DNA of 64,000 nt from Variibacter sp. GTDB taxonomy: Bacteria; Pseudomonadota; Alphaproteobacteria; Rhizobiales; Xanthobacteraceae. Position numbers and translations under genes: made by a program. The notes under the pieces were generated by a model that made no database searches, was not told the DNA's origin, and worked only from the letters and a program-made list of their open reading frames with translations. The DNA lies in contig JADGHE010000006.1 of the NCBI GenBank assembly GCA_019689555.1, forward strand, positions 20,182 to 84,181, in the 5' to 3' direction. Of the stretch, positions 42,089 through 52,582 are shown in pieces. Position 1 is the stretch's first letter. Every line of letters begins with the position of its first letter.

Positions 42089-43939
42089 TCAAGACGCCTC
42101 CGCCGCCTGCGGGGTCTCCTCCCCGCGCCGCGCGGCGGGCTCGAGGTGGAACTGGGCGGCCGCAAGCTCCGCGAAGCGGCCGCCGCGCCGCAGCAGCTCG
42201 TCGAAGGTGCCGCTCTCGACGATCCGCCCGTGGTCGAAGACCAGGATGCAATCCGCATTGCGGACAGTCGCGAGCCGGTGGGCAATGACGAAGGTCGTGC
42301 GGTTGCGCATGGCGGTGGCGATGGCGGCCTGGAACTTCGCCTCGGTCACGGCGTCCATGGCGCTCGTCGCTTCGTCGAGGATGAGGATCGGCGGGTCCTT
42401 GAGCAGCGCCCGCGCGATCGACAGACGCTGGCGCTCGCCGCCGGAGAGCGCCCGGCCGCGTTCGCCGACCGCGGCCGCCAGGCCGTTCTCGCGGTCGATG
42501 ATGTCGAGCGCCTGGGCCTGGCGCGCCGCCTCGCGCATCTCCTCCTCCGTCGCGTCGGGCTTTCCGACGCGCAGGTTCTCGGCGATCGAGCGGTTGAACA
42601 GCAGGGTCTCCTGAAAGACCACCCCGATGTTGCGGCGGAGCGCCGCGAGCTTGATGTCGCGGATGTCAATGCCGTCGATGCGAATGACGCCGGCCTGCGG
42701 ATCGAACGCCCGATGCAACAGCGCGAGCGCCGTCGACTTGCCGGCCCCGGTCGCCCCTACGAGCGCCACGCACTGGCCCGGCTCCGCCTTGAAGGTCAGG
42801 TCGCGCACGGCCGGCATGCGGCCGTCGTAGGAGAACGAAACGTTCTCGAATTCCACCCGTCCGCGCAGCCGGCCGGGGTCGATCGCATCGGGCCTGTCGC
42901 GCAGGGCCGGCGCGGTGTCGAGCACGTCGAAGAATTCGCGCAGCCGCGGCGCGTTCATGAACAGGCCGTTGACGAAGCCGACGGCCTGTTCGAGCCGGTG
43001 GATGATCATGGTGGCGAAATTCATGAACATCACCACCTCGCCGAGCGTGGCGAGCCCGCGCGCATGCAGAAAAGTGCCGACGATGATGATGACGAGGATC
43101 GTCAGCGTGGTCCCCGCCCGCGTCAGCACGGTCAGCACCGCCCACCACGACAGCACCGGAATCTGCGCGGCGAGCAGCAGATTGACCTGCTTTCTGAGCT
43201 CGGCCACCTCGGCCTCGACGCGGGTGAAGCTCTGCACCAGCGCGACATTGCCGAGTGCATCGGAGGCCCGCTCCGCCACGTCGGAATATTTGCGTTCGAC
43301 CGAGCTCTGCAACGACTCGGTCTTCTTGAGCATCCCCGCCGTGAGCGCCGCGAACACAACGCACAGCGCGATCAGCAGCAAGGCGAGCCGCCAGTTGAGA
43401 TAGATCGAAAGCGGCAGCAGCACGATCAGCGACACGAACGTCGCGAAGTGCTCGCGGAAGAAGCCGAGCCACAGCCACCACAAGGCGTCGGTGCCCTGCA
43501 GCATCACCTTCATCAGCCGGCCGGAATGGGTCGTCCCGTGAAAGGAGAGCGGAAGCTGCAGCACGTGCTCGAAATAGGTCGTCAGGACCGCCTGCCGGCG
43601 CCGGTGTGCCAAGCGGTCGGCGTGCAGCGCAACAAGCGTGCCGGAAACGATGGCGAAGATTCCGAACCCGACCCAGGCCGCGAGCAGCATCGACAGATGC
43701 GGCCAGTCGAGCGTCGCGCCCTTGGCCTGCGCGCCGGCGAGCACGTCGATGACCCGGCCGAACAGGATCGGCTCGGCGAACTGGGCGGCGACGAGCGCCA
43801 CATTGCCGATCGCGAGCATAAGCCCGAGGGAAGTTTCCGGGCCGAGCAGGTCGATCACGCGGCGGTAAAGCCGCAGCAGGCCGAGGGCGCCGCCGCTCTG
43901 GGCCTGCCGTTCTTCCAGGAGGGGTGCAGTCGCTGTCAT
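42089..43939 (-). CDS. Fused permease/ATPase ABC exporter, NdvA/ChvA (glucan exporter)-like
   Basis: ATG 43939, 616 aa. Walker [10 protein letters not shown], signature LSGGERQR, Walker [10 protein letters not shown]. The TM region shares blocks I recall from NdvA ([17 protein letters not shown]). The subfamily call is from memory, not a search. Confidence 0.85.
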
Positions 43940-43973: not shown

Positions 43974-44531
43974 TCAACCGCGCAGCATGCGCATGAGAAC
44001 CGTATCGCGGCGCACGAAATGATGGAACAACGCGGCACCGATATGGCCGGCCAGCAGCAGCGCGAGGGCAATTCCCAGCCATCTGTGGCCCGTGAAGAGA
44101 ACGTCCGAGAGCGCGCGGTCCTCCGGCCAGATCGGCGGCAGTTCGAAAAGCCAGAAGAACAGGACCGGCGCCCGGTAGGCCGAGGTTGCGACCCATCCCA
44201 GGATCGGCTGCACCACCAACACGGCATAGAGCAGTCCGTGCGTCGTCCGCGCCGCCAGCCGCTGGAGGGGCGGGATGTCGTCCGGCAGAGGGGGCACCGT
44301 GTGCGTCAGGCGATAGGCAAGCCTCACCGCCATGATGGGAATGAGCAGCAGCCCGAACGACCGGTGCAGATGGAACAGCAGGTCCTGCGTCGGCCCTTCG
44401 GGCATATTCGCCATGAGGATTCCGGCTGGAATTTGAAACAGAACGATCGCCGCCGTCGTCCAGTGCAGGGTACGGGCGACGGCGGAGTAGCCCTGCACGT
44501 CTGTCGCCGGGAGAGCGTGCGCCTGGATCAT
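43974..44531 (-). CDS. Cytochrome b561 (CybB family)
   Basis: 185 aa. His-bearing helices ([41 protein letters not shown]) align by eye with E. coli CybB. Confidence 0.85.
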
Positions 44532-44564: not shown

Positions 44565-45725
44565 CTAAGGTTCGGAGGTCGGCTGCAGCGCGTCGGCCTC
44601 GTCCTCGGCCTCAACGAATGCCCCGTCCAGCCAATGCCCCGCCTTCGCCGCCTTGGCGGCGAGATAGCGGCGGTTGTCGGGATTGATCGGCGCCTGAAGC
44701 GGCATGCGGCCGACCACTTCCACCCCCGCCGCGTTCAGCGCCTCGAGCTTGCCCGGATTGTTGGTCATCAGCAACACGCGGTTGCACCCGATGATCCGCA
44801 GCATGCGCGCGGCAATGGCGTAGTCGCGCTCGTCGTCCTCGAAGCCGAGCGCGGTATTGGCGTCGACGGTGTCGAGGCCCGCGTCCTGCAGCGCGTAGGC
44901 GCGCATCTTGTTGGCGAGGCCGAGCCCGCGGCCCTCCTGCTCGAGATAGAGAATCACGCCGCCTCCCGACTCGGCGAGCCGCGTGATGGCGAGCTGAAGC
45001 TGCGCGCCGCAGTCGCAGCGGCGGGAGCCGAAGACGTCGCCGGTGAGGCACGCCGAGTGCAGTCGGACGGGGACGGGCTTCTGGAAGTCGGGCTCGCCGA
45101 TCACGACGGCGACGGGGCTTCCCCCGCCGGCATCGCGAAAGACGTGAAACCATGCCGCGACACCCTCGCGCAGCGGGACCTGGGCCTTGCTCGCGAGCGT
45201 CACGGAGTGGGCCAGTCGGCGGCGGAATTCCTGCACCGCGTCGGCGCGCACGGAGATCAGCCGCGGATCCCGGGCGATCGCGCGCGCGGCCGCGGAGTCG
45301 GCCACCAGCAGAGCCGGCAGCCGCGTGGCGAGCTTCGCCAGTTCGAGCGCCGCGACGGTGGCGGAACTCGCGGTCCGATAGTTCACGGGCGTCTTGCCGC
45401 CGATCTGTGTCGCAAGCGACCAGATCGACGCCAAGTCCGCCTGCCCGCTGAGTTCGATCAGAACCGGCGTCGTCACGTCGAGGCCGAGCCGGCGCGCGCG
45501 CCGGCTCGTGACCGCGAGCCGCAGCTCATCCCGACCACAGGAAGCCCGCAGGGCCGCGATGGTCGTCGCAGACGCGCCGTCGAGAGGCAGGGTCACCACG
45601 CGGTCGGCGCCCGCGGTCACCTCGACCGGCCGGCCGGCGCGGAATTCGGCAAGGCCGCGCTGAACCGCAATCTCGTCCGCCCCGCCGAACAGTTCCAAAT
45701 CGGCCCCTTGGATTTCGCTTGCCAT
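44565..45725 (-). CDS. GTP cyclohydrolase II with a degenerate RibB-like N-terminal domain
   Basis: The C-terminal half carries RLHSACLTGDVFGSRRCDCG (Zn Cys triad), EGRGLGLANKMRAYALQD and LLMTNNPGK. The N-terminal ~190 aa opens like DHBP synthase (AEFRAGRPVEV), but I see no DRENEGD or GHTE motifs. Confidence 0.9.
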   Translation of the reverse strand: MASEIQGADLELFGGADEIAVQRGLAEFRAGRPVEVTAGADRVVTLPLDGASATTIAALRASCGRDELRLAVTSRRARRLGLDVTTPVLIELSGQADLASIWSLATQIGGKTPVNYRTASSATVAALELAKLATRLPALLVADSAAARAIARDPRLISVRADAVQEFRRRLAHSVTLASKAQVPLREGVAAWFHVFRDAGGGSPVAVVIGEPDFQKPVPVRLHSACLTGDVFGSRRCDCGAQLQLAITRLAESGGGVILYLEQEGRGLGLANKMRAYALQDAGLDTVDANTALGFEDDERDYAIAARMLRIIGCNRVLLMTNNPGKLEALNAAGVEVVGRMPLQAPINPDNRRYLAAKAAKAGHWLDGAFVEAEDEADALQPTSEP

Positions 45726-45962
45726 TCCAGACGTGGTCCCAATTCGCAGATGCGAGAACCCCGGAAAAGGGCCGCTAGTCCTGTTCCTGGCGCCCTCAAT
45801 CTATGCCAACTTATGCCGCCACTTCAAAAAGTGCGCGGGACCAGCGTGACGAAAACAGGCCACGCCCCTCCGGGGGATCCGGGACGCGAGCGCCCTGCGG
45901 GAAGTGCTCCTCAACCGCTCGAACGCGCGGACGGGGCGTCCTGGGCCGCGACGCTTGCGGCG

Positions 45963-46703
45963 ATGCGCACGCCCGGAAGCCCGATCCCGCCGCCCTGGAC
46001 CGACCTTTTCGCCCCCCTCGTCGCGGGCGCCGTGGACGACCTGATGGTGATCGCCCAGATCGGCCAGTCGCTCGACGGACGGATCGCGACCCAAAGCGGC
46101 CACTCGCATTACATCAACGGCGACGAGGGTCTCGATCATCTGCATCGGCTGCGCGCCGTCGTCGACGCCGTCGTGATCGGCGTCGGCACGGTGCGCAGCG
46201 ACGATCCTCGCCTCACCGTGCGGCGCGTGCCGGGGCCGCAGCCTGCGCGGGTGATCATCGACCCGCAGGGGCGGCTGCCCCCGACCGCGCGCGTGCTCGC
46301 AGCCGACGGCGTGCGGCGGATCGTCGTGCGGGCCGCGGGCGTGCACACCCCGCTGCCCCCGGGGGTGGAAACGATCGAGCTGCGCCCGGCCGCGGGCTTG
46401 CTCGATCCTGCGGCCATCGTCGCGAGCCTCGCGGCGCGCGGCCTGCGGCGCATCCTCGTCGAGGGCGGCGCGAGCACCGTCTCGCGCTTCCTGGCGGCGC
46501 GATGCCTCGACCGCATGCACATCATCGTCGCGCCGATCATTCTCGGCTCGGGGGCGCAGAGCTTCGCCCTGCCCCCCGTCGACCGCGTGGAACAGGCCCT
46601 GCGGCCGCGCATGCGGGCGCATATCCTGCGCAACGACGTGCTGTTCGACTGCGATCTCTCGCATCAGAGGGTGGTCATCGGCCACGCGAAGAAATCCATG
46701 TGA
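45963..46703 (+). CDS. RibD C-terminal (pyrimidine reductase) domain protein, no deaminase domain
   Basis: IAQIGQSLDGRIATQSGHSHYINGDEGLDHLHRLRAVVDAVVIGVGTVRSDDPRLTVR is the RibD_C pattern. Start ATG 45963 is chosen; alternative ATG 45813. The N-terminal 670 aa of ORF 43938..46703 are antisense shadow. Confidence 0.8.
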   Translation: MRTPGSPIPPPWTDLFAPLVAGAVDDLMVIAQIGQSLDGRIATQSGHSHYINGDEGLDHLHRLRAVVDAVVIGVGTVRSDDPRLTVRRVPGPQPARVIIDPQGRLPPTARVLAADGVRRIVVRAAGVHTPLPPGVETIELRPAAGLLDPAAIVASLAARGLRRILVEGGASTVSRFLAARCLDRMHIIVAPIILGSGAQSFALPPVDRVEQALRPRMRAHILRNDVLFDCDLSHQRVVIGHAKKSM

Positions 46704-47467
46704 CCGACGCGCAGCGTCGAGCGGCCGGCGCCGACGAGGTCGCGGCGGCGGGCAAGCCAGTCCTGCACTCGCGAAAGCGGCACGACGCCGACCGCCTGCG
46801 CGGCCTGCGCCCAGCCGGCGAGGAGCTGCATCTGTATCTCGCGATCGGTCGGCGCGAATTCCCAATCGGAACGTCCCGCGCTGACGGTGTAGCCGACCCG
46901 CTGGAACCGCTTCATCGCAAACGGGGCGGCGCTGGGGCCGAGCGCCGGGCCGAAGCCCTTGTCGGTGAGCTGATGGCGGTTCACGGCGGCGATCACGCGC
47001 GCATCGAGCGGGTCCGGCGGGGAGAAGGTGACGCGTCCGTCGTAGATCAAGGCCGCATAGACCGGGAGGCGGCGCGTCGCCGCTTCGACCGCGAGGCGGT
47101 CGACCCAGACATCCGAGACCAGATCCAGCAGGGCCGAAGCGGTGACAAGGTCCACGGGACCATCGAGCGCCAATTCGAGGTCGCGCGCGAGATCGAGCGC
47201 GATCCGATGCACATGGGCGCCGGGCGGCTGTTCGGTCGGCCGCGTGAGCAGCCCGAGATTGTTGTCGTAGAGGCGCCACGTCTGCCGCCCGGGCAGGTGC
47301 GACGCAATCGCCCGGAGGGTGGAGCCCGTGCCGCAGCCGAGATCGGCGACCGTGATCGCGAAGCGATCCTTGAAGGCGGCCGCCACGGCCTCGAGCACGG
47401 TGCGGTTGCGCGCGGCGGCGTCGTAAGGTTCGCGCAGATCCAGCCATTCGGCGGAAAAGACGCTCAT
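46664..47467 (-). CDS. Class I SAM-dependent methyltransferase
   Basis: ATG 47467 gives MSVFSAEWLDLREPYD. Motif I VADLGCGTGS. The ATG overlaps the GT4 stop as ATGA. Confidence 0.8.
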   Translation of the reverse strand: MSVFSAEWLDLREPYDAAARNRTVLEAVAAAFKDRFAITVADLGCGTGSTLRAIASHLPGRQTWRLYDNNLGLLTRPTEQPPGAHVHRIALDLARDLELALDGPVDLVTASALLDLVSDVWVDRLAVEAATRRLPVYAALIYDGRVTFSPPDPLDARVIAAVNRHQLTDKGFGPALGPSAAPFAMKRFQRVGYTVSAGRSDWEFAPTDREIQMQLLAGWAQAAQAVGVVPLSRVQDWLARRRDLVGAGRSTLRVGHMDFFAWPMTTL

Positions 47468-48516
47468 GCGGCCGCCTCCAGCACGCCGGCGAAGATCGTC
47501 GCGGTGTCCTGCCAGGTCGGAAGCCGCTGCGCCGCCGCCCACGCGACTTCTCCCCAGCGCCGGCGCGCCTTCCGGTCGGTGACGGCAAGGCGCAGGGCGG
47601 CCGCCAGGGCCGCGACGTCGTCCGGGGGGACCAGCAGGCCAGCGCCGGGCGGCACCGTGGTGGGAATTGCGCCCGCCGTGGTTCCGATCACCGGCAGGCC
47701 GTGGGCAATCGCTTCCGAGAAGGCCATTCCGTATCCTTCGAAGCGGGAGGCTAACACGAAAAGATCCGCGGCCTCGTATCGTTCCGCGAGATCGGCCGCA
47801 CTGACCGCCCCGGCGAGCACAACCCTTTCCCCCAGCCCGAGACGGCGGACCTCGCGGGCGATCGCCTCGGCCGTCGGGGGGCTGCGGTCGCGATCGCCGA
47901 CGATCACCAGACGCCAGTCGAGATCGCGGAGACGGGCCAGCGCGGCCAGCAGCACGTCGTAACCCTTCCGCGGCACCAGCGCGCCGACCGCCAGCAAGCC
48001 GACGCAAGCCCCTCCTCCGCCGCTTGCGCGCCGCACCCGATCGGCGCCCGGCGGCGCAACGGTGATGCGCTCGCGCGGGACGTTATAGCCGGCCGCCAAC
48101 AGCTCCGCGGTGGCGGCGCTGGTGACGACCACATGGCGCACGGCGGCGAGCGCCGCGCGCTCGCTTGCCCGCAGGGCCTCGGCCCGCGCGGGGGCCAGGC
48201 CGGTTTCCAGAGCGAGCGGATGGTGCACGAGCGCGATCACCGGCCTTCGCCCGCGCAAGGCCGCGGCGGCCTCGGGGAGCACGCCGAGCGCCAGCCCGTC
48301 CACGACGAGGGGCTCCCGGCCGGCATGGCCGAGCAGCGCCGCGAGCGCGCGGGCGCGAACTCCATCGCCGGCTTCGGGAAATCCTTCGCCGAGATCGAGC
48401 ACCTCGACGCGCCAGCCCAGGCTTCTCAGCTCGGCGATGACGCGACGATCGTAGGCGTATCCGCCGGTCGGCGTATCCAGGCTGCCGGGAACCGCGAAGA
48501 CCGCCGCCGGCTTCAC
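47464..48516 (-). CDS. GT4-family glycosyltransferase
   Basis: GTG at 48516 (or 48519) gives KPAAVFAVPGSLDTPTGGYAYDRR. C-terminal GT-B block FVLASRFEGYGMAFSEAIAHGLPVIGT (E-x7-E type). GTGA overlap with the upstream stop. Confidence 0.85.
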   Translation of the reverse strand: MKPAAVFAVPGSLDTPTGGYAYDRRVIAELRSLGWRVEVLDLGEGFPEAGDGVRARALAALLGHAGREPLVVDGLALGVLPEAAAALRGRRPVIALVHHPLALETGLAPARAEALRASERAALAAVRHVVVTSAATAELLAAGYNVPRERITVAPPGADRVRRASGGGGACVGLLAVGALVPRKGYDVLLAALARLRDLDWRLVIVGDRDRSPPTAEAIAREVRRLGLGERVVLAGAVSAADLAERYEAADLFVLASRFEGYGMAFSEAIAHGLPVIGTTAGAIPTTVPPGAGLLVPPDDVAALAAALRLAVTDRKARRRWGEVAWAAAQRLPTWQDTATIFAGVLEAAA

Positions 48517-48914
48517 CACACCGGCGCCTCGTAGAAGGCGCGCGCCAGCGGCGATTCCGCGATCGTGACGCGGATCGCCGCGATCTCGCGCCCGTCGCGG
48601 CCGAGTTTGCCTGCGCGCACCGCATCCGCCAGGCGATCGAAGACATAGCGCGTCAAAAATTCGGTCGTCGTGTTGACGCCGGCGAACTGCGGCAGCTCGT
48701 CGAGATTGCGGTAGTTGATCGGCGCGAGCGCCGCCTTGAGGACCTCGAAGGCGCGGCCGATGTCGACGACGATGCCGTTGGCGTCGAGCCGCTCGGCCAG
48801 AAAAGCCGCCGAGACCGTGAAGGTCGCGCCATGCAGCGCCTGCGCGGGGCCGAAGATCTCGCCGCGAAACGAATGGGCGATCATGACGTGATCGGACACC
48901 TCTACGGCGAACAC
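48513..48914 (-). CDS. 6-pyruvoyl-tetrahydropterin synthase / QueD (COG0720) fold protein, divergent active site
   Basis: GTG start with GGAGGA upstream. The 133-aa product aligns by eye with E. coli QueD (IAHSF, LHGATF, VDIGRAFEVLK, NTTTEFL), but several catalytic positions differ. See findings. Confidence 0.8.
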   Translation of the reverse strand: MFAVEVSDHVMIAHSFRGEIFGPAQALHGATFTVSAAFLAERLDANGIVVDIGRAFEVLKAALAPINYRNLDELPQFAGVNTTTEFLTRYVFDRLADAVRAGKLGRDGREIAAIRVTIAESPLARAFYEAPVW

Positions 48915-48935
48915 GGGGTTCTCGTCCTCCGTGGA

Positions 48936-49940
48936 TCAGCCGGCGTCGGCCGCCGGGTAGCGGATGACCTGGCATAGCACACCGCCGCCCGGCTTAAGGA
49001 TGGCCGGCAGGGCCGCGGGCAGCGCGCGGAAGTCAATCGGCGGGGCGAGCAGCCCGTCGAGGGCCGGATCGGCGAGAAGGGCGAGCGCCGCCACGAGCCT
49101 GCGCGCGGGGGTCCAGCGGGCCCGGTGCGAGGGGGCGATGCGGCCGACCTGACTCGAAACGATCCGCAGCCGACGACTGTGGAATGCCTCGCCCAGCGGG
49201 ACCGGGACCTCGCCCGTCCCGTACCAGCTCAGTTCCAGCACGGTCGCCTCTTCGCCGGCGAGGCGCAGGGCGGTCGCAAGGCCGGCGGCGGTCCCGCTCG
49301 CATGGATGACGAGGTCGCAGTCCTGCGGCGCCTCGCCCGGGGAGGCGAAGGCCACCCCGAGCGTCCGCGCGACCGTGGCGCGGCCGGGATCGACATCCAC
49401 GAGGGTCGTCTGTGCACCCGGCAGGCGGCCGCACAACCAGGCGCACAGGCATCCGACCGTGCCGCCCCCGACCACCGCGATGCGGTCCGCCGGGGCGGGC
49501 GCCGCATCCCACACGGCGTTGAGCGCCGTCTCCATGTTCGCCGCCAGCACCGCCCGCGCGGCGGGCACGCCGTCGGGCACAGGCACGACCGACTCCGCCG
49601 GCAGGGTGAAGACGCTCTGATGCGGATGGAGCGCGAAAACCATGCGGCCTTCAAGGGCTTCCGGCCCCTGCTCGACCCGGCCGACGGTCGCGTAACCGTA
49701 TTTCACCGGGAAGGGAAAGGTCCCGGCCATGGCGGGACCGCGCATGCGCTCGTATTCGCTCGGCGGCACCCGCCCGGCAAACACCAGCCGCTCGGTCCCG
49801 CGGCTCAAGGCACCAAAATGGGCGCGCACGCGCACCTCGCCGTGCAGCGGGGCGGGCGCCCGCTCCGACCGGATTTCGGCGCGCCCCGCAGCGACGTACC
49901 AGAGCGCCTCGGCTGGTTCCCCCCTGTCGTCTGCCCGCAC
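48936..49940 (-). CDS. MDR-superfamily dehydrogenase, BchC-like (annotated type: zinc-binding alcohol dehydrogenase)
   Basis: GTG 49940 is preceded by GGAG. GALSRGTERLVFAGRVP and VKYGYATVGRV resemble BchC-type MDRs. Rossmann motif VVGGGTVG. No Cys/His catalytic-Zn ligands are evident. The upstream 630 aa of ORF 48936..51836 are antisense shadow of opgH. Confidence 0.75.
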   Translation of the reverse strand: MRADDRGEPAEALWYVAAGRAEIRSERAPAPLHGEVRVRAHFGALSRGTERLVFAGRVPPSEYERMRGPAMAGTFPFPVKYGYATVGRVEQGPEALEGRMVFALHPHQSVFTLPAESVVPVPDGVPAARAVLAANMETALNAVWDAAPAPADRIAVVGGGTVGCLCAWLCGRLPGAQTTLVDVDPGRATVARTLGVAFASPGEAPQDCDLVIHASGTAAGLATALRLAGEEATVLELSWYGTGEVPVPLGEAFHSRRLRIVSSQVGRIAPSHRARWTPARRLVAALALLADPALDGLLAPPIDFRALPAALPAILKPGGGVLCQVIRYPAADAG

Positions 49941-50018: not shown

Positions 50019-51851
50019 ATGTCCGATCTGGCGGAGGAACTGGGTGGCGCGTTTGCGGCGCCCGGACGACGGCCGGCGCTGTTGCGCCGGCGGCTGCTGT
50101 TCGCCCTGCTCGTCGGCACGACGATCGCTGGTCTGCTCTGGCTGTTCGGCGCCGCGCTCTCGGCGGGCGGCCTCGACGCCATCGACCTTGCGCTGCTCGT
50201 CCTGTTCGGCGTGACGCTGCCGTGGACGGTCATCGGCTTCTGGAATGCGACCATCGGCTTTCTGGTGATGCGCTTCGCGCCGGACCCGGTCGCCGCGGTC
50301 GTCCCCGCCGTCACCCGCCTGCGCGGCGACGAGCCGATCACGGCCTCGGTCGCGCTGCTCGTCTTCATCCGCAATGAAATGCCGGCGCGCGTGCTGCGCA
50401 ACATCGAGGCGATGCTCGATGGCCTCGCCGCCGCGGGCGTGGGCGAGCGCTTCCACCTCTATGTGCTGAGCGACACCAGCGACCCGGCCATTGCGGCCGC
50501 CGAAGAGGCGAGCTTCGGCGCGCTTGCGCGCGCCTGGGACGGCCGCATCCCGGTCACCTACCGCCGGCGCGCCGATAATGCGGGCTTCAAGGCCGGCAAT
50601 CTGCGCGACTTCTGCGTGCGCTGGGGCGACCGGCACGATTTGGCGGTCACGCTGGACGCCGATAGCTTCATCCCGGCGGACGCCGTTCTGCGCATGGTGC
50701 GGCTGATGCAGGTCGCACCGGAGATCGGGATCTTGCAAGGGCTCGTCGTCGGCATGCCGTCGACGAGCGCCTTTGCGCGCATCTTTCAGTTCGGCATGCG
50801 GCTCGGCATGCGCTCCTATACGATCGGCAGCGCCTGGTGGCAGGGCGATTGCGGACCGCACTGGGGGCACAACTCGGTTTTGCGTCTCAAGCCGTTCATC
50901 GCGCACTGCCACATTCCGCCGCTGCCGGGAAACGGCCCGCTCGGCGGACACGTACTGAGCCACGACCAGATCGAGGCCGCCTTGATGCGCCGCGCCGGCT
51001 ACGAAGTGCGCGTGCTGCCGGAGGAGAATCTCGGCTGGGAGGAGAACCCGCCGACGCTCATGGAATTCATCCGCCGCGATCTGCGCTGGTGCCAGGGCAA
51101 CATGCAGTACTGGCGCTTTCTGTTCCTGCCGGGGCTCAAGGCCGTGAGCCGCTATCAGCTTGCCTTTGCGCTGCTGATGTTCCTGGGCTCGCCGGCCTGG
51201 ATGGGCCTGCTCGCGCTCGGCACGCTGGGCGTCGCGCAAGCGCCGGAACCGGCCGCCTTCATGCATGCGGAAGCCGGATTCGCCCTGCTCGGGCTCACGC
51301 TGGTCATGTGGTTCGCGCCGAAGATCGCCACCACGCTCGACGTGCTCGCGCGACCCGATCTGCGCCGCGCCTTCGGCGGCGGCTTGCGGTTCGCGGCCAA
51401 TGTCGCGCTCGAGACGGCGTTCTTCCTTCTGCTTTCGCCGATCATGTGGTTCAGCCACACGGCGTTTCTCGGCGGCCTCATGTTCGGCCGAGCGATCGGC
51501 TGGGCTGAGCAGACGCGCGACGACCATGCGGTGCCCTTCGGGCTGGCGCTGCGGCGGCTGTGGCCGCACATGCTTTTCGGCTGGACGGCGATCGGCATTC
51601 TCGCGGCGATGGCGCCGGAGGCGCTTCCCTACGCGCTGCTCATCGCCGGCGGGCTTGCGCTCGCCGCGCCCTTCGCGGTGTTGACGGCCGATCCTCGCGT
51701 CGGCGCGGCGCTCGCGCGGCTTGGCATCGGACGGCTTCCCGAAGAGGAAATGCCGACGGCCTTGCGGGCGTTGCGACTGCCGGCGCTCGCGCTTGCGGCG
51801 GCGCCGGCGTCGTCCGGAACCGCCGAGGCGACGCAATGCTCACAATCCTGA
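50019..51851 (+). CDS. opgH: Glucans biosynthesis glucosyltransferase H (OpgH/MdoH, GT2)
   Basis: ATG 50019, 610 aa. VLSDTSDP, NAGFKAGNLRDF, TLDADS, WGHNSVLR, SHDQIEAA, RRDLRWCQGN and flanking TM segments match the OpgH family pattern. Confidence 0.92.
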   Translation: MSDLAEELGGAFAAPGRRPALLRRRLLFALLVGTTIAGLLWLFGAALSAGGLDAIDLALLVLFGVTLPWTVIGFWNATIGFLVMRFAPDPVAAVVPAVTRLRGDEPITASVALLVFIRNEMPARVLRNIEAMLDGLAAAGVGERFHLYVLSDTSDPAIAAAEEASFGALARAWDGRIPVTYRRRADNAGFKAGNLRDFCVRWGDRHDLAVTLDADSFIPADAVLRMVRLMQVAPEIGILQGLVVGMPSTSAFARIFQFGMRLGMRSYTIGSAWWQGDCGPHWGHNSVLRLKPFIAHCHIPPLPGNGPLGGHVLSHDQIEAALMRRAGYEVRVLPEENLGWEENPPTLMEFIRRDLRWCQGNMQYWRFLFLPGLKAVSRYQLAFALLMFLGSPAWMGLLALGTLGVAQAPEPAAFMHAEAGFALLGLTLVMWFAPKIATTLDVLARPDLRRAFGGGLRFAANVALETAFFLLLSPIMWFSHTAFLGGLMFGRAIGWAEQTRDDHAVPFGLALRRLWPHMLFGWTAIGILAAMAPEALPYALLIAGGLALAAPFAVLTADPRVGAALARLGIGRLPEEEMPTALRALRLPALALAAAPASSGTAEATQCSQS

Positions 51852-52582
51852 GGAGCGCGCGCGGCGTCGCCCGTTCGCTGCGCCTCTACTACGGCGATCG
51901 GGCGCGGCGCGCCGCCATGGAGCGGCTCTATTCCCGCTTCGTCGCGGCGGGCGACCTCGTCTTCGACATCGGCGCTCATGTCGGCGACCGCGTCGCCGCG
52001 TTCCGCCGGCTCGGCGCGCGGGTCGTCGCCGTCGAGCCGCAGCCGGCGCTCGCGTGGACGCTGCGGCTCATCTACGCGCGCGACCGCGCCGTTACGGTCG
52101 AGCGGTGCGCGGTCGGCCGCGCGGTGGGACGGGTGACGCTGCGGCTCAATCTCGCCAATCCCACCGTCTCGACCGCCTCGAGCGCGTTCGTCGAAGCCGC
52201 GCATAATGCTCCCGGCTGGGAAGGACAGAGGTGGAGCGCGAGCGTCGACGTGCCGATGCTGACGCTCGACGCCCTGATCGCCCGCCACGGAGCGCCGCGC
52301 TTCATCAAGATCGACGTCGAAGGCTTCGAGGCGGAGGCTTTGGCCGGCCTGACGCGACCGGCGCCCGCGCTCTCCTTCGAGTTCACCACGATCCAGCGCG
52401 CCGTCGCCCTCGCCTGCCTCGAACGGTGCGCGGCGCTCGGCTATCGCGCCTTCGATGCGGCGCTCGGGGAAAATCAGAGGCTCGAACACGGCCGCTGGAT
52501 CACGGCGGAGGAGATGGCGCGCTGGCTCGAAGCGCTGCCCCACGCCGCCAATTCGGGAGACATCTATGCAATGCTCGGCTAG
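51836..52582 (+). CDS. FkbM-family methyltransferase
   Basis: ATG 51836 (GAGGCG upstream), 248 aa. VFDIGAHVGD and FIKIDVEGFEAEAL are FkbM hallmarks. It overlaps the opgH end by 16 nt. Confidence 0.85.
   Translation: MLTILRSARGVARSLRLYYGDRARRAAMERLYSRFVAAGDLVFDIGAHVGDRVAAFRRLGARVVAVEPQPALAWTLRLIYARDRAVTVERCAVGRAVGRVTLRLNLANPTVSTASSAFVEAAHNAPGWEGQRWSASVDVPMLTLDALIARHGAPRFIKIDVEGFEAEALAGLTRPAPALSFEFTTIQRAVALACLERCAALGYRAFDAALGENQRLEHGRWITAEEMARWLEALPHAANSGDIYAMLG

Follow-up and report, generated by a model that had tools for sequence, protein, structure and literature searches.

The window, a 64,000 nt stretch of contig JADGHE010000006.1 from Variibacter sp., contains a 133 aa open reading frame with a GTG start codon (48513 to 48914, reverse strand), here assigned to the PTPS-IV subfamily of T-fold proteins. 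A GGAGGA ribosome-binding site (48925 to 48930, reverse strand) lies 10 nt 5' of the GTG, and the first gene of the operon, encoding an MDR-superfamily oxidoreductase (48936 to 49940, reverse strand), ends just upstream with its stop codon at 48936-48938. This oxidoreductase is BchC-like, with a weak match to ADH_zinc_N, and by eye the GHE motif of zinc ADH proteins is replaced by GYA. The TGA stop codon of the PTPS-IV gene (48513-48515) is overlapped by the start of a GT4 glycosyltransferase gene (47464 to 48519, reverse strand; GTG start at either 48516 or 48519), and the stop codon of the latter is overlapped in turn by the ATG, at 47467, of a gene encoding a SAM-dependent methyltransferase with a weak Methyltransf_25 match (46664 to 47467, reverse strand). 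A sequence-only reading of this DNA had pointed to the translational coupling with GT4 and to the strong ribosome-binding site; both are real, and the 4 nt overlap between the PTPS-IV and GT4 genes is also found in Streptomyces.

Convergent with the methyltransferase gene, and overlapping it by 40 nt at the 3' end, is a CDS encoding a RibD_C protein that has the reductase but lacks the deaminase domain (45813 to 46703, forward strand); its start is uncertain, being the ATG at either 45813 or 45963. Beyond this on the reverse strand are genes for a GTP cyclohydrolase II (GCH II; 44565 to 45725), which has an N-terminal extension of around 175 aa, an intact zinc Cys triad and Tyr as its switch residue (RAYALQD), a cytochrome b561 (43974 to 44531; PF01292) and an NdvA/ChvA-type glucan ABC exporter (42089 to 43939; NF010178 matches with 875 bits, the cut-off being 733). 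The CDS of an OpgH/MdoH-family membrane glucosyltransferase (50019 to 51851, forward strand) runs divergently from the MDR gene, and downstream of it is that of an FkbM-family methyltransferase (51836 to 52582, forward strand).

Family membership and residue pattern

The 133 aa protein matches the PTPS family PF01242 with 72.6 bits, where the cut-off is 22.4, and falls below the cut-off of the QueD equivalog TIGR03367 (30.7 bits against 89.25). A phmmer search of the PDB matched it over its full length (residues 1-130, E = 4.6e-43) to 3D7J, the structure of S. coelicolor SCO6650, to which it is 57% identical. An AF2 model (pLDDT 95.9) gave the same structure as its best Foldseek match, with a TM score of 0.93 and an rmsd of 1.2 Å; all the top matches were PTPS or QueD structures, with QueD and PTPS structures reaching only 0.72-0.77. 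Residues 21-25 are FGPAQ, which has been named as the PTPS-IV signature (PMC5445326, with reference to Zallot 2016 and Phillips 2012). In the same source, PF00925 and PF01872 are independently noted around PTPS-IV genes, and in the window both domains, in GCH II and RibD_C respectively, are encoded less than 4 kb from the PTPS-IV gene. The protein is almost certainly an orthologue-level member of the PTPS-IV (SCO6650-type) subfamily of COG0720, and presumably forms a hexamer like that of 3D7J.

The clade is not new, despite what the sequence-only reading implied: it already bears the name PTPS-IV, and one member, SCO6650, has been crystallised. The prior assignment extends to a named subfamily and a structure, but not to a published function, as none was found for any PTPS-IV member in the accessible full-text literature. 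Spoonamore and colleagues are said to have described in 2008 a structure of SCO6650 that lacks zinc and the catalytic triad but keeps the pterin-binding residues, the protein reportedly having crystallised without bound metal or ligand. At a threshold of E <= 1e-10, the family comprises 679 representative clusters (50% identity) from several phyla. One apparent MDR-PTPS fusion protein was found (P0238). A Rosetta-stone search of the long representatives revealed mostly triple tandems with no second Pfam domain, and HMMs of the cluster proteins gave only a weak methyltransferase match, of 17.5 bits, in one haptophyte protein.

In order to place the active site residues, a profile of 27 diverse relatives was aligned, using hhalign, with a profile of 11 canonical QueD and PTPS-III sequences (probability 98.4%, E = 4.4e-15). 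The first zinc His of QueD corresponds to His14 and the second to His28, both of which are kept, whereas the third is replaced by Ala30; the catalytic Cys is replaced by Ala24, and the Asp-His dyad by Asn67-Tyr68. Also retained are the Thr-x-Glu ring anchor (Thr83/Glu85) and the conserved C-terminal Glu (Glu120). Ten positions (F21, G22, P23, A24, H28, T31, D51, L71, E85 and E120) are invariant in the 27 relatives, the identities of which are 38-71%, and none of them has His at position 30. The substitutions are fixed family-wide and are not those of a decaying copy.

The profile alignment thereby reproduces most of what had been aligned by eye with QueD, namely the Ala residues at the catalytic Cys and third zinc His and the retention of the T-x-E block. 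It amends two points: two of the three zinc ligands are kept, rather than the first alone, and although the DHH block is indeed replaced, the catalytically relevant change is Asp-His to Asn-Tyr and not His-His to Tyr-Arg. That the Cys and His residues might be present but shifted had been raised as an objection; hhalign agrees with the original register, and the translation is free of cysteine, hence a displaced catalytic Cys is excluded. With the third zinc His, the Cys and both residues of the Asp-His dyad gone, the protein should not be a 6-pyruvoyl-tetrahydropterin synthase or a QueD, and the canonical chemistry of either is very probably absent. The earlier judgement that standard PTPS or CPH4 synthase activity is unlikely therefore holds, given these losses, the low TIGR03367 score and the lack of QueC in the genome.

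Gene context in related genomes

The neighbourhood was compared across 80 proteobacterial loci related to the cluster in the window. An MDR oxidoreductase gene is upstream of PTPS-IV in 78 of these and a GT4 gene downstream in 79, whilst a methyltransferase is found in 73, a RibD_C reductase nearby in 63, a GTP cyclohydrolase II nearby in 49 and a cytochrome b561 in 22. Of the 51 full-length proteobacterial loci, 49 have a divergent opgH. An FkbM-family methyltransferase occurs in 26 of the 53 full-length loci, and 32 of the 53 have an ABC exporter match (E <= 1e-8), some of these candidate orthologues being short matches of only around 30% identity; NdvA-type exporters recur beside the cluster in both alpha- and betaproteobacteria. 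The arrangement is the same in low-GC Polynucleobacter. In approximately a quarter of loci, such as those of the Roseibium group, GCH II and RibD_C are missing within 10 kb, hence their link to PTPS-IV could be looser than that of the MDR, GT4 and methyltransferase core.

In Streptomyces, the locus encodes an MDR protein, PTPS-IV, GT4, a methyltransferase (the homologue being 479 aa long), a flippase-like protein, a creatininase, GCH II and a CDP-OH phosphatidyltransferase. The cluster GCH II enzymes are catalytically intact, the Cys triad being present in all 51; at the switch position, the 49 proteobacterial loci have Tyr and the two from Streptomyces have Met, which rules out the idea that the cluster always encodes a Met-type (FAPy-producing) GCH II.

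The genome from which the window derives is 99% complete, and PTPS-IV is its sole PF01242 member. FolE gives a strong match (245 bits), whereas QueC has no real match, the best being 24 bits over 58 residues, and a search for the F420 ligase CofE (PF01996) found none in this genome. No other intact GCH II domain was found in the genome besides that of the cluster, which may partly serve riboflavin synthesis.

Candidate functions of PTPS-IV

The reading we favour, with a probability of roughly 60%, is that PTPS-IV is still an enzyme, a T-fold protein that works without zinc on a 2-amino-4-oxopyrimidine derived from GCH II, within an orphan, envelope-linked pathway. In T-fold enzymes, the Thr-x-Glu anchor grips the 2-amino-4-oxopyrimidine edge; in PTPS-IV, which keeps this anchor, the former active site also retains two His and one Glu beside the invariant new FGPAQ loop. 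Such a putative site could perform zinc-independent acid/base chemistry on the side chain of the substrate, whether isomerisation, ring closure or dehydration, each specific reaction taken singly being unlikely. The substrate might be the GTP-derived aminopyrimidine from the clustered GCH II, 2,5-diamino-6-ribosylamino-pyrimidinone 5'-phosphate, or alternatively the ribityl form, as would be made by the reductase-only RibD_C. An origin from GCH II is on balance favoured: the enzymes that would feed the pathway suggest a 2-aminopyrimidine supplied by GCH II rather than FolE, and a substrate keeping its 2-amino group fits both the Glu anchor and the deaminase-less RibD_C. The PTPS-IV step may lie between that of the MDR oxidoreductase and those of GT4 and the methyltransferase, and the pathway would probably yield a pyrimidine or pterin that is glycosylated, methylated and directed to the envelope; its membrane partners would be OpgH and the NdvA-type exporter in Proteobacteria, and the CDP-alcohol phosphatidyltransferase and flippase-like protein in Streptomyces.

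A more specific version, which we consider rather improbable, is that a GTP-cyclohydrolase-I-like reaction has been split, with PTPS-IV as its metal-free 'second half', and that its product becomes an envelope constituent. The ring-opened GCH II product would be taken either directly or after redox steps by RibD_C and the MDR protein, and PTPS-IV would isomerise it in an Amadori-type reaction and close the ring, or rearrange the side chain in some related way. The resulting pterin or aminopyrimidine polyol might be glycosylated by GT4 and then methylated, so as to form a primer or substituent of the periplasmic glucan that OpgH makes and the NdvA-type transporter exports; the polyol could instead become a phospholipid head group in Actinobacteria. 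If true, this would represent a hitherto unknown class of envelope constituents derived from GTP, spanning the Actinomycetota, Alpha- and Betaproteobacteria and Acidobacteriota, as well as haptophyte algae in the form of triple-tandem fusions.

The protein might alternatively be a non-catalytic carrier, chaperone or scaffold, holding a pterin- or pyrimidine-like intermediate or organising the MDR and GT4 proteins; a carrier or scaffold was among the options raised by the sequence-only reading. The loss of the Cys, third His and Asp-His together, whilst the ring-anchoring Thr and Glu are kept, would suit such a role, as would the apparent MDR-PTPS fusion and the conservation of the coupling with GT4 from Proteobacteria to Streptomyces. 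However, His14, His28, Glu120 and the FGPAQ loop are conserved in relatives of 38-71% identity, beyond what ring binding should need, and a gene placed between those of two enzymes in an operon typically encodes a step of the pathway. A scaffold or carrier is thus a possible, but minority, reading, and an unlikely one. It is still less probable that PTPS-IV is a QueD or PTPS that has diverged yet remains functional, using dihydroneopterin triphosphate made by FolE with other residues replacing those lost. Its being the sole PF01242 member of a nearly complete genome that has FolE, and the public annotation of its homologues as '6-carboxytetrahydropterin synthase', are compatible with this; but the protein has no cysteine, its TIGR03367 score is far below the cut-off, QueC is absent, related genomes hold a canonical QueD or PTPS-III besides PTPS-IV, and SCO6650 is reported not to catalyse the PTPS reaction, all of which makes the proposal highly improbable.

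Two further pathways draw on GCH II. One is a FolE-independent dihydroneopterin route for folate, comparable with the chlamydial RibA and TrpF bypass, to which PTPS-IV would contribute the isomerase that is otherwise missing. In chemical terms, dihydroneopterin phosphate would result if the GCH II product underwent an Amadori rearrangement, for which Adams and colleagues reportedly provided a precedent in 2014, and the second half-reaction of GCH I takes place in a T-fold domain and is not known to require the zinc; yet the strong FolE match means that no bypass is needed, and the GT4, methyltransferase, opgH and exporter genes have no role in folate synthesis, leaving this very improbable. 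The other is coenzyme F420 biosynthesis, the precursor of which is supplied by GCH II and RibD-type enzymes; Streptomyces, a PTPS-IV host, makes F420. PTPS-IV has been linked to F420 in an unpublished remark (Zallot et al. 2016, PMC5041015), the sole functional statement on the subfamily that the accessible literature yielded. Against this stand the absence of CofE, the identity of the conserved partners (GT4, methyltransferase, opgH and the glucan exporter, rather than Cof or Fbi genes) and the RibD_C protein without a deaminase domain, whereas FO arises from a precursor in the deaminated uracil form; we consider an F420 role as remote as that of a divergent QueD. Given a genome with FolE but neither QueC nor the F420 ligase, queuosine, folate-bypass and F420 roles are all unlikely here. 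The queuosine role was rejected on the lack of QueC and of cysteine and on the score below the equivalog cut-off, the folate bypass on the presence of FolE and the F420 role in this genome on the absence of CofE.

PTPS-IV is among the few COG0720 subfamilies without a published function despite a crystal structure dating from 2008, and public databases routinely mislabel its members '6-carboxytetrahydropterin synthase'. The window does not add a new kind of protein, but together with the 80 related loci it sharpens the question of what PTPS-IV does, through constant partners comprising a zinc-less MDR oxidoreductase, GT4 and a methyltransferase, plus the OpgH glucan synthase in Proteobacteria. 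This gene set offers concrete enzymes for reconstitution, with the product to be sought in the periplasmic glucan or envelope fraction.

Comparison with known systems

QueD/PTPS-I, the 6-carboxy-5,6,7,8-tetrahydropterin synthase represented by E. coli 4NTK, shares the T-fold with the protein in the window (TM about 0.72-0.74), and its first two zinc His residues, Thr-x-Glu and C-terminal Glu all align; however, CxxxHGH is AQALHGA and DH is NY in the window's Cys-free protein. PTPS-II, the 6-pyruvoyl-tetrahydropterin synthase of animals and cyanobacteria, likewise has the same fold (rat 1B66 and human 3I2B, TM 0.76-0.77), and phmmer aligns residues 27-104 with them, including 'NLD' and 'TTE', but the CxxxxxHGH motif is absent, with Gly22 at the Cys position (-6) and HGA for HGH, and the Asp-His of the catalytic triad is likewise replaced. 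The fold is also that of PTPS-III (ExxHGH), which includes the FolB-bypass enzymes. Here the residue at -3 from HG is Gln25, the amide analogue of the PTPS-III Glu; the two differ in this Glu to Gln change and in the missing third His (QALHGA), and true PTPS-III paralogues (EEIHGH) exist separately in related genomes.

The closest counterpart is SCO6650/3D7J, which has the same FGPAQ-x-LHGAT block, has lost the Cys, His and Asp-His alike, and is encoded in the same operon core of MDR, PTPS-IV, GT4 and methyltransferase with GCH II nearby. The Streptomyces locus differs in the Met switch residue of its GCH II (RAMALQ), the adjacent creatininase-family gene and its membrane partners (CDP-alcohol phosphatidyltransferase and flippase-like protein), whereas the window has a Tyr-type GCH II, a RibD_C reductase, and OpgH with an NdvA-type exporter.

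Residue pattern and translation signals of the PTPS-IV ORF

The PTPS-IV ORF (window 48513..48914, minus strand) encodes a 133 aa protein from a GTG start, which is supported by homologues in many genomes beginning at the same residue (alignment A1). The sequence-only reading had proposed a strong GGAGGA ribosome-binding site and translational coupling to the GT4 glycosyltransferase gene; both points are correct, as the motif lies at 48925-48930 on the minus strand, 10 nt upstream of the GTG, and the GT4 start GTG (48516 or 48519) overlaps the TGA of the PTPS-IV ORF. The stop codon of the preceding gene is at 48936-48938, and the ATG of the methyltransferase gene overlaps the GT4 stop.

Pfam places the product in the PTPS family (PF01242, 72.6 bits), and it scores 30.7 against the QueD equivalog model, far below the cut-off of 89.25. 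A profile of 27 diverse relatives, with 38-71% identity (A1), was aligned using hhalign to one of 11 canonical QueD, displaced-Cys QueD and PTPS-III sequences from related genomes, together with an E. coli QueD sequence (A2). The match had a probability of 98.4% and reproduced the by-eye alignment: His14 is the first zinc His, Ala24 is at the position of the QueD Cys, His28 and Ala30 occupy both His positions of HGH, Asn67-Tyr68 replace Asp-His, Thr83/Glu85 correspond to the ring anchor and Glu120 is the conserved C terminal Glu. Hence the catalytic residues are replaced, as had been suggested, and not merely shifted. Regarding the zinc ligands, the first His is indeed kept and the third lost, but two of the three survive, rather than only one. 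Some QueD enzymes compensate for the loss of this Cys through a 'displaced Cys'; this solution is excluded here, because the protein has no cysteine anywhere in its 133 aa. The low equivalog score, the replaced residues and the missing Cys together support the earlier view that the protein is unlikely to carry out standard PTPS or QueD chemistry.

Ten residues (F21, G22, P23, A24, H28, T31, D51, L71, E85 and E120) are invariant across the 27 sequences of A1, in which position 30 is never His, and the pattern is under selection. Relatives' genomes also contain PF01242 paralogues (loci L093, L097, L102, L094, L096, L095 and L099-L101), some of which are QueD-like, lacking the CxxxHGH Cys and having C terminal Cys residues (PNSRVHGH...SC.EGC), with others being of the PTPS-III type (EEIHGH).

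A conserved neighbourhood in Proteobacteria

Proteins of the window were used as queries on 80 loci related to this one, drawn from genomes of alpha- and betaproteobacteria. The MDR oxidoreductase (window 48936-49940, minus strand) was present in 78 and GT4 (47464..48519, minus strand) in 79, directly flanking PTPS-IV in a constant order and orientation; the methyltransferase (46664..47467, minus strand) was found in 73, RibD_C (45813..46703, plus strand) in 63 and GTP cyclohydrolase II (GCH II; 44565-45725, minus strand) in 49. With an extended query set, 49 of 51 full-length proteobacterial loci proved to have a gene for an OpgH/MdoH-family glucosyltransferase, oriented divergently to the MDR gene, and further recurring partners were an NdvA/ChvA-type glucan ABC exporter, an FkbM methyltransferase and cytochrome b561, although exporter matches are short and only around 30% identical in some loci, such that not all need be orthologues. 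This extended set also occurs in low-GC Polynucleobacter, with unambiguous ORF calling. In the window, the OpgH-family glucan synthase (50019-51851, plus strand) lies beside the PTPS-IV operon and the NdvA-type exporter (42089-43939, minus strand) near it, as in Polynucleobacter and many other loci; NCBIfam confirms both assignments. The pairing of the two is unusual, and opgG was not noticed among the ORFs examined across 42-56 kb of the window.

In the MDR 'alcohol dehydrogenase', inspection by eye shows KYGYATVG in place of the GHE of zinc-dependent MDRs, and the upstream Cys ligand also seems to be missing; the protein may be a zinc-less MDR of the enoyl- or quinone-reductase type. The RibD_C and methyltransferase genes converge and share 40 nt at their 3' ends (46664-46703), and RibD_C could start at either of two ATG codons (45813 or 45963).

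In all 49 proteobacterial cluster GCH II proteins the Cys triad is present and the switch residue is Tyr; Met was found at this position in only two Streptomyces loci. Proteobacterial loci with the Tyr-type GCH II have, in at least 25 cases (L005, L058, L006, L023 and around 20 further), a creatininase-family gene next after it, and so does Streptomyces with the Met-type; the AFRPP formamidases BrbF and ArfB belong to this family. In the source genome the creatininase-family gene is missing from the window and lies on another contig (L113). There are two PF00925 matches in this genome, and the zinc Cys triad is present only in the cluster copy. The second (L083; G000:C106:15452-15895, minus strand), presumably RibBA, lacks the triad, which leaves the cluster enzyme as the genome's sole intact GTP cyclohydrolase II and perhaps as the supplier of riboflavin synthesis too.

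Three tandem PTPS-IV domains are found in P0134, P0148, P0133, P0155, P0159 and P0185 (373-855 aa). Entries from Emiliania huxleyi and Gephyrocapsa oceanica fall into the cluster of P0134, hence the family reaches haptophyte algae; the C terminal extension of P0134 weakly matches the cluster methyltransferase HMM (17.5 bits). P0238 (352 aa) combines part of an ADH_zinc_N domain with PTPS-IV and represents either a genuine MDR-PTPS-IV fusion or read-through in gene calling.

Candidate roles and a proposed pathway

No published assignment of PTPS-IV function was found in the literature searched, the sole statement on its role being an unpublished remark linking it to F420 (PMC5041015). In the source genome (3.3 Mb, 99% complete), where PTPS-IV is the only PF01242 member, no QueC, canonical QueD or F420 ligase was detected, and FolE has a strong match. 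De novo queuosine synthesis therefore appears absent, given the missing QueC and QueD, and this gene content makes roles in queuosine synthesis (without QueC), FolE bypass (with a strong FolE) or F420 synthesis (without the ligase) unlikely here. Several related genomes have QueD or PTPS-III besides PTPS-IV.

Retention of the Thr-x-Glu anchor, two His and the Glu, alongside a new invariant loop at the old Cys position, suggests a site that binds a ligand, is probably catalytic and has become independent of zinc; a non-catalytic carrier is a possible alternative. In T-fold enzymes, the Glu anchor recognises a 2-amino-4-oxopyrimidine edge. This fits a feeder pair made up of GCH II and a RibD_C that has the reductase domain but no deaminase, since such a pair leaves the 2-amino group in place. 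We therefore infer that a catalytic PTPS-IV would act by acid/base chemistry, its target being the side chain of 2,5-diamino-6-ribosyl- or ribityl-aminopyrimidinone 5'-phosphate, either as such or after modification by the MDR enzyme. GT4 and the methyltransferase would tailor the product, which would pass to envelope machinery. The interest lies in this orphan pathway, rather than in the single PTPS-IV ORF.

Comparison with SCO6650 and the Streptomyces locus

Searching PDB sequences with phmmer matched S. coelicolor SCO6650 (3D7J) over the whole length of the protein (E = 4.6e-43), with canonical PTPS and QueD far weaker (E 1e-4 to 0.5). The AlphaFold model (pLDDT 95.9) likewise agrees with 3D7J at a TM of 0.93 and rmsd of 1.2 Å, compared to a TM of only 0.72-0.77 for QueD/PTPS structures. 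The AGeNNT paper gives FGPAQ as the PTPS-IV signature and describes PF00925 and PF01872 in PTPS-IV neighbourhoods (PMC5445326), both of which hold here.

The Streptomyces locus examined, whose PTPS-IV protein is 98% identical to SCO6650, shows the order CDP-alcohol phosphatidyltransferase, MDR, PTPS-IV, GT4 (overlapping by 4 nt), a methyltransferase of the same family as in the window, an LPG_synthase_TM/flippase-like membrane protein, a creatininase-family gene and GCH II with RAMALQ. As this repeats the proteobacterial core, MDR, PTPS-IV, GT4 and methyltransferase, along with GCH II, are conserved between phyla, and in both the core adjoins envelope-directed membrane enzymes. SCO6655, the GCH II paralogue neighbouring SCO6650, reportedly carries Met in place of the catalytic Tyr and for that reason does not go beyond the formylated product (Spoonamore et al. 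2006). SCO6650 itself is reported to be a hexameric T-fold without zinc or catalytic triad, performing no PTPS reaction but retaining pterin-binding residues (Spoonamore et al. 2008). Given this work and the published signature, what was observed here had been described before in the orthologue, and the clade had its name. Hence, instead of representing a new clade, the 133 aa protein, which belongs to PTPS-IV and is no canonical PTPS or QueD, adds one more member to an established subfamily that already has a crystal structure.
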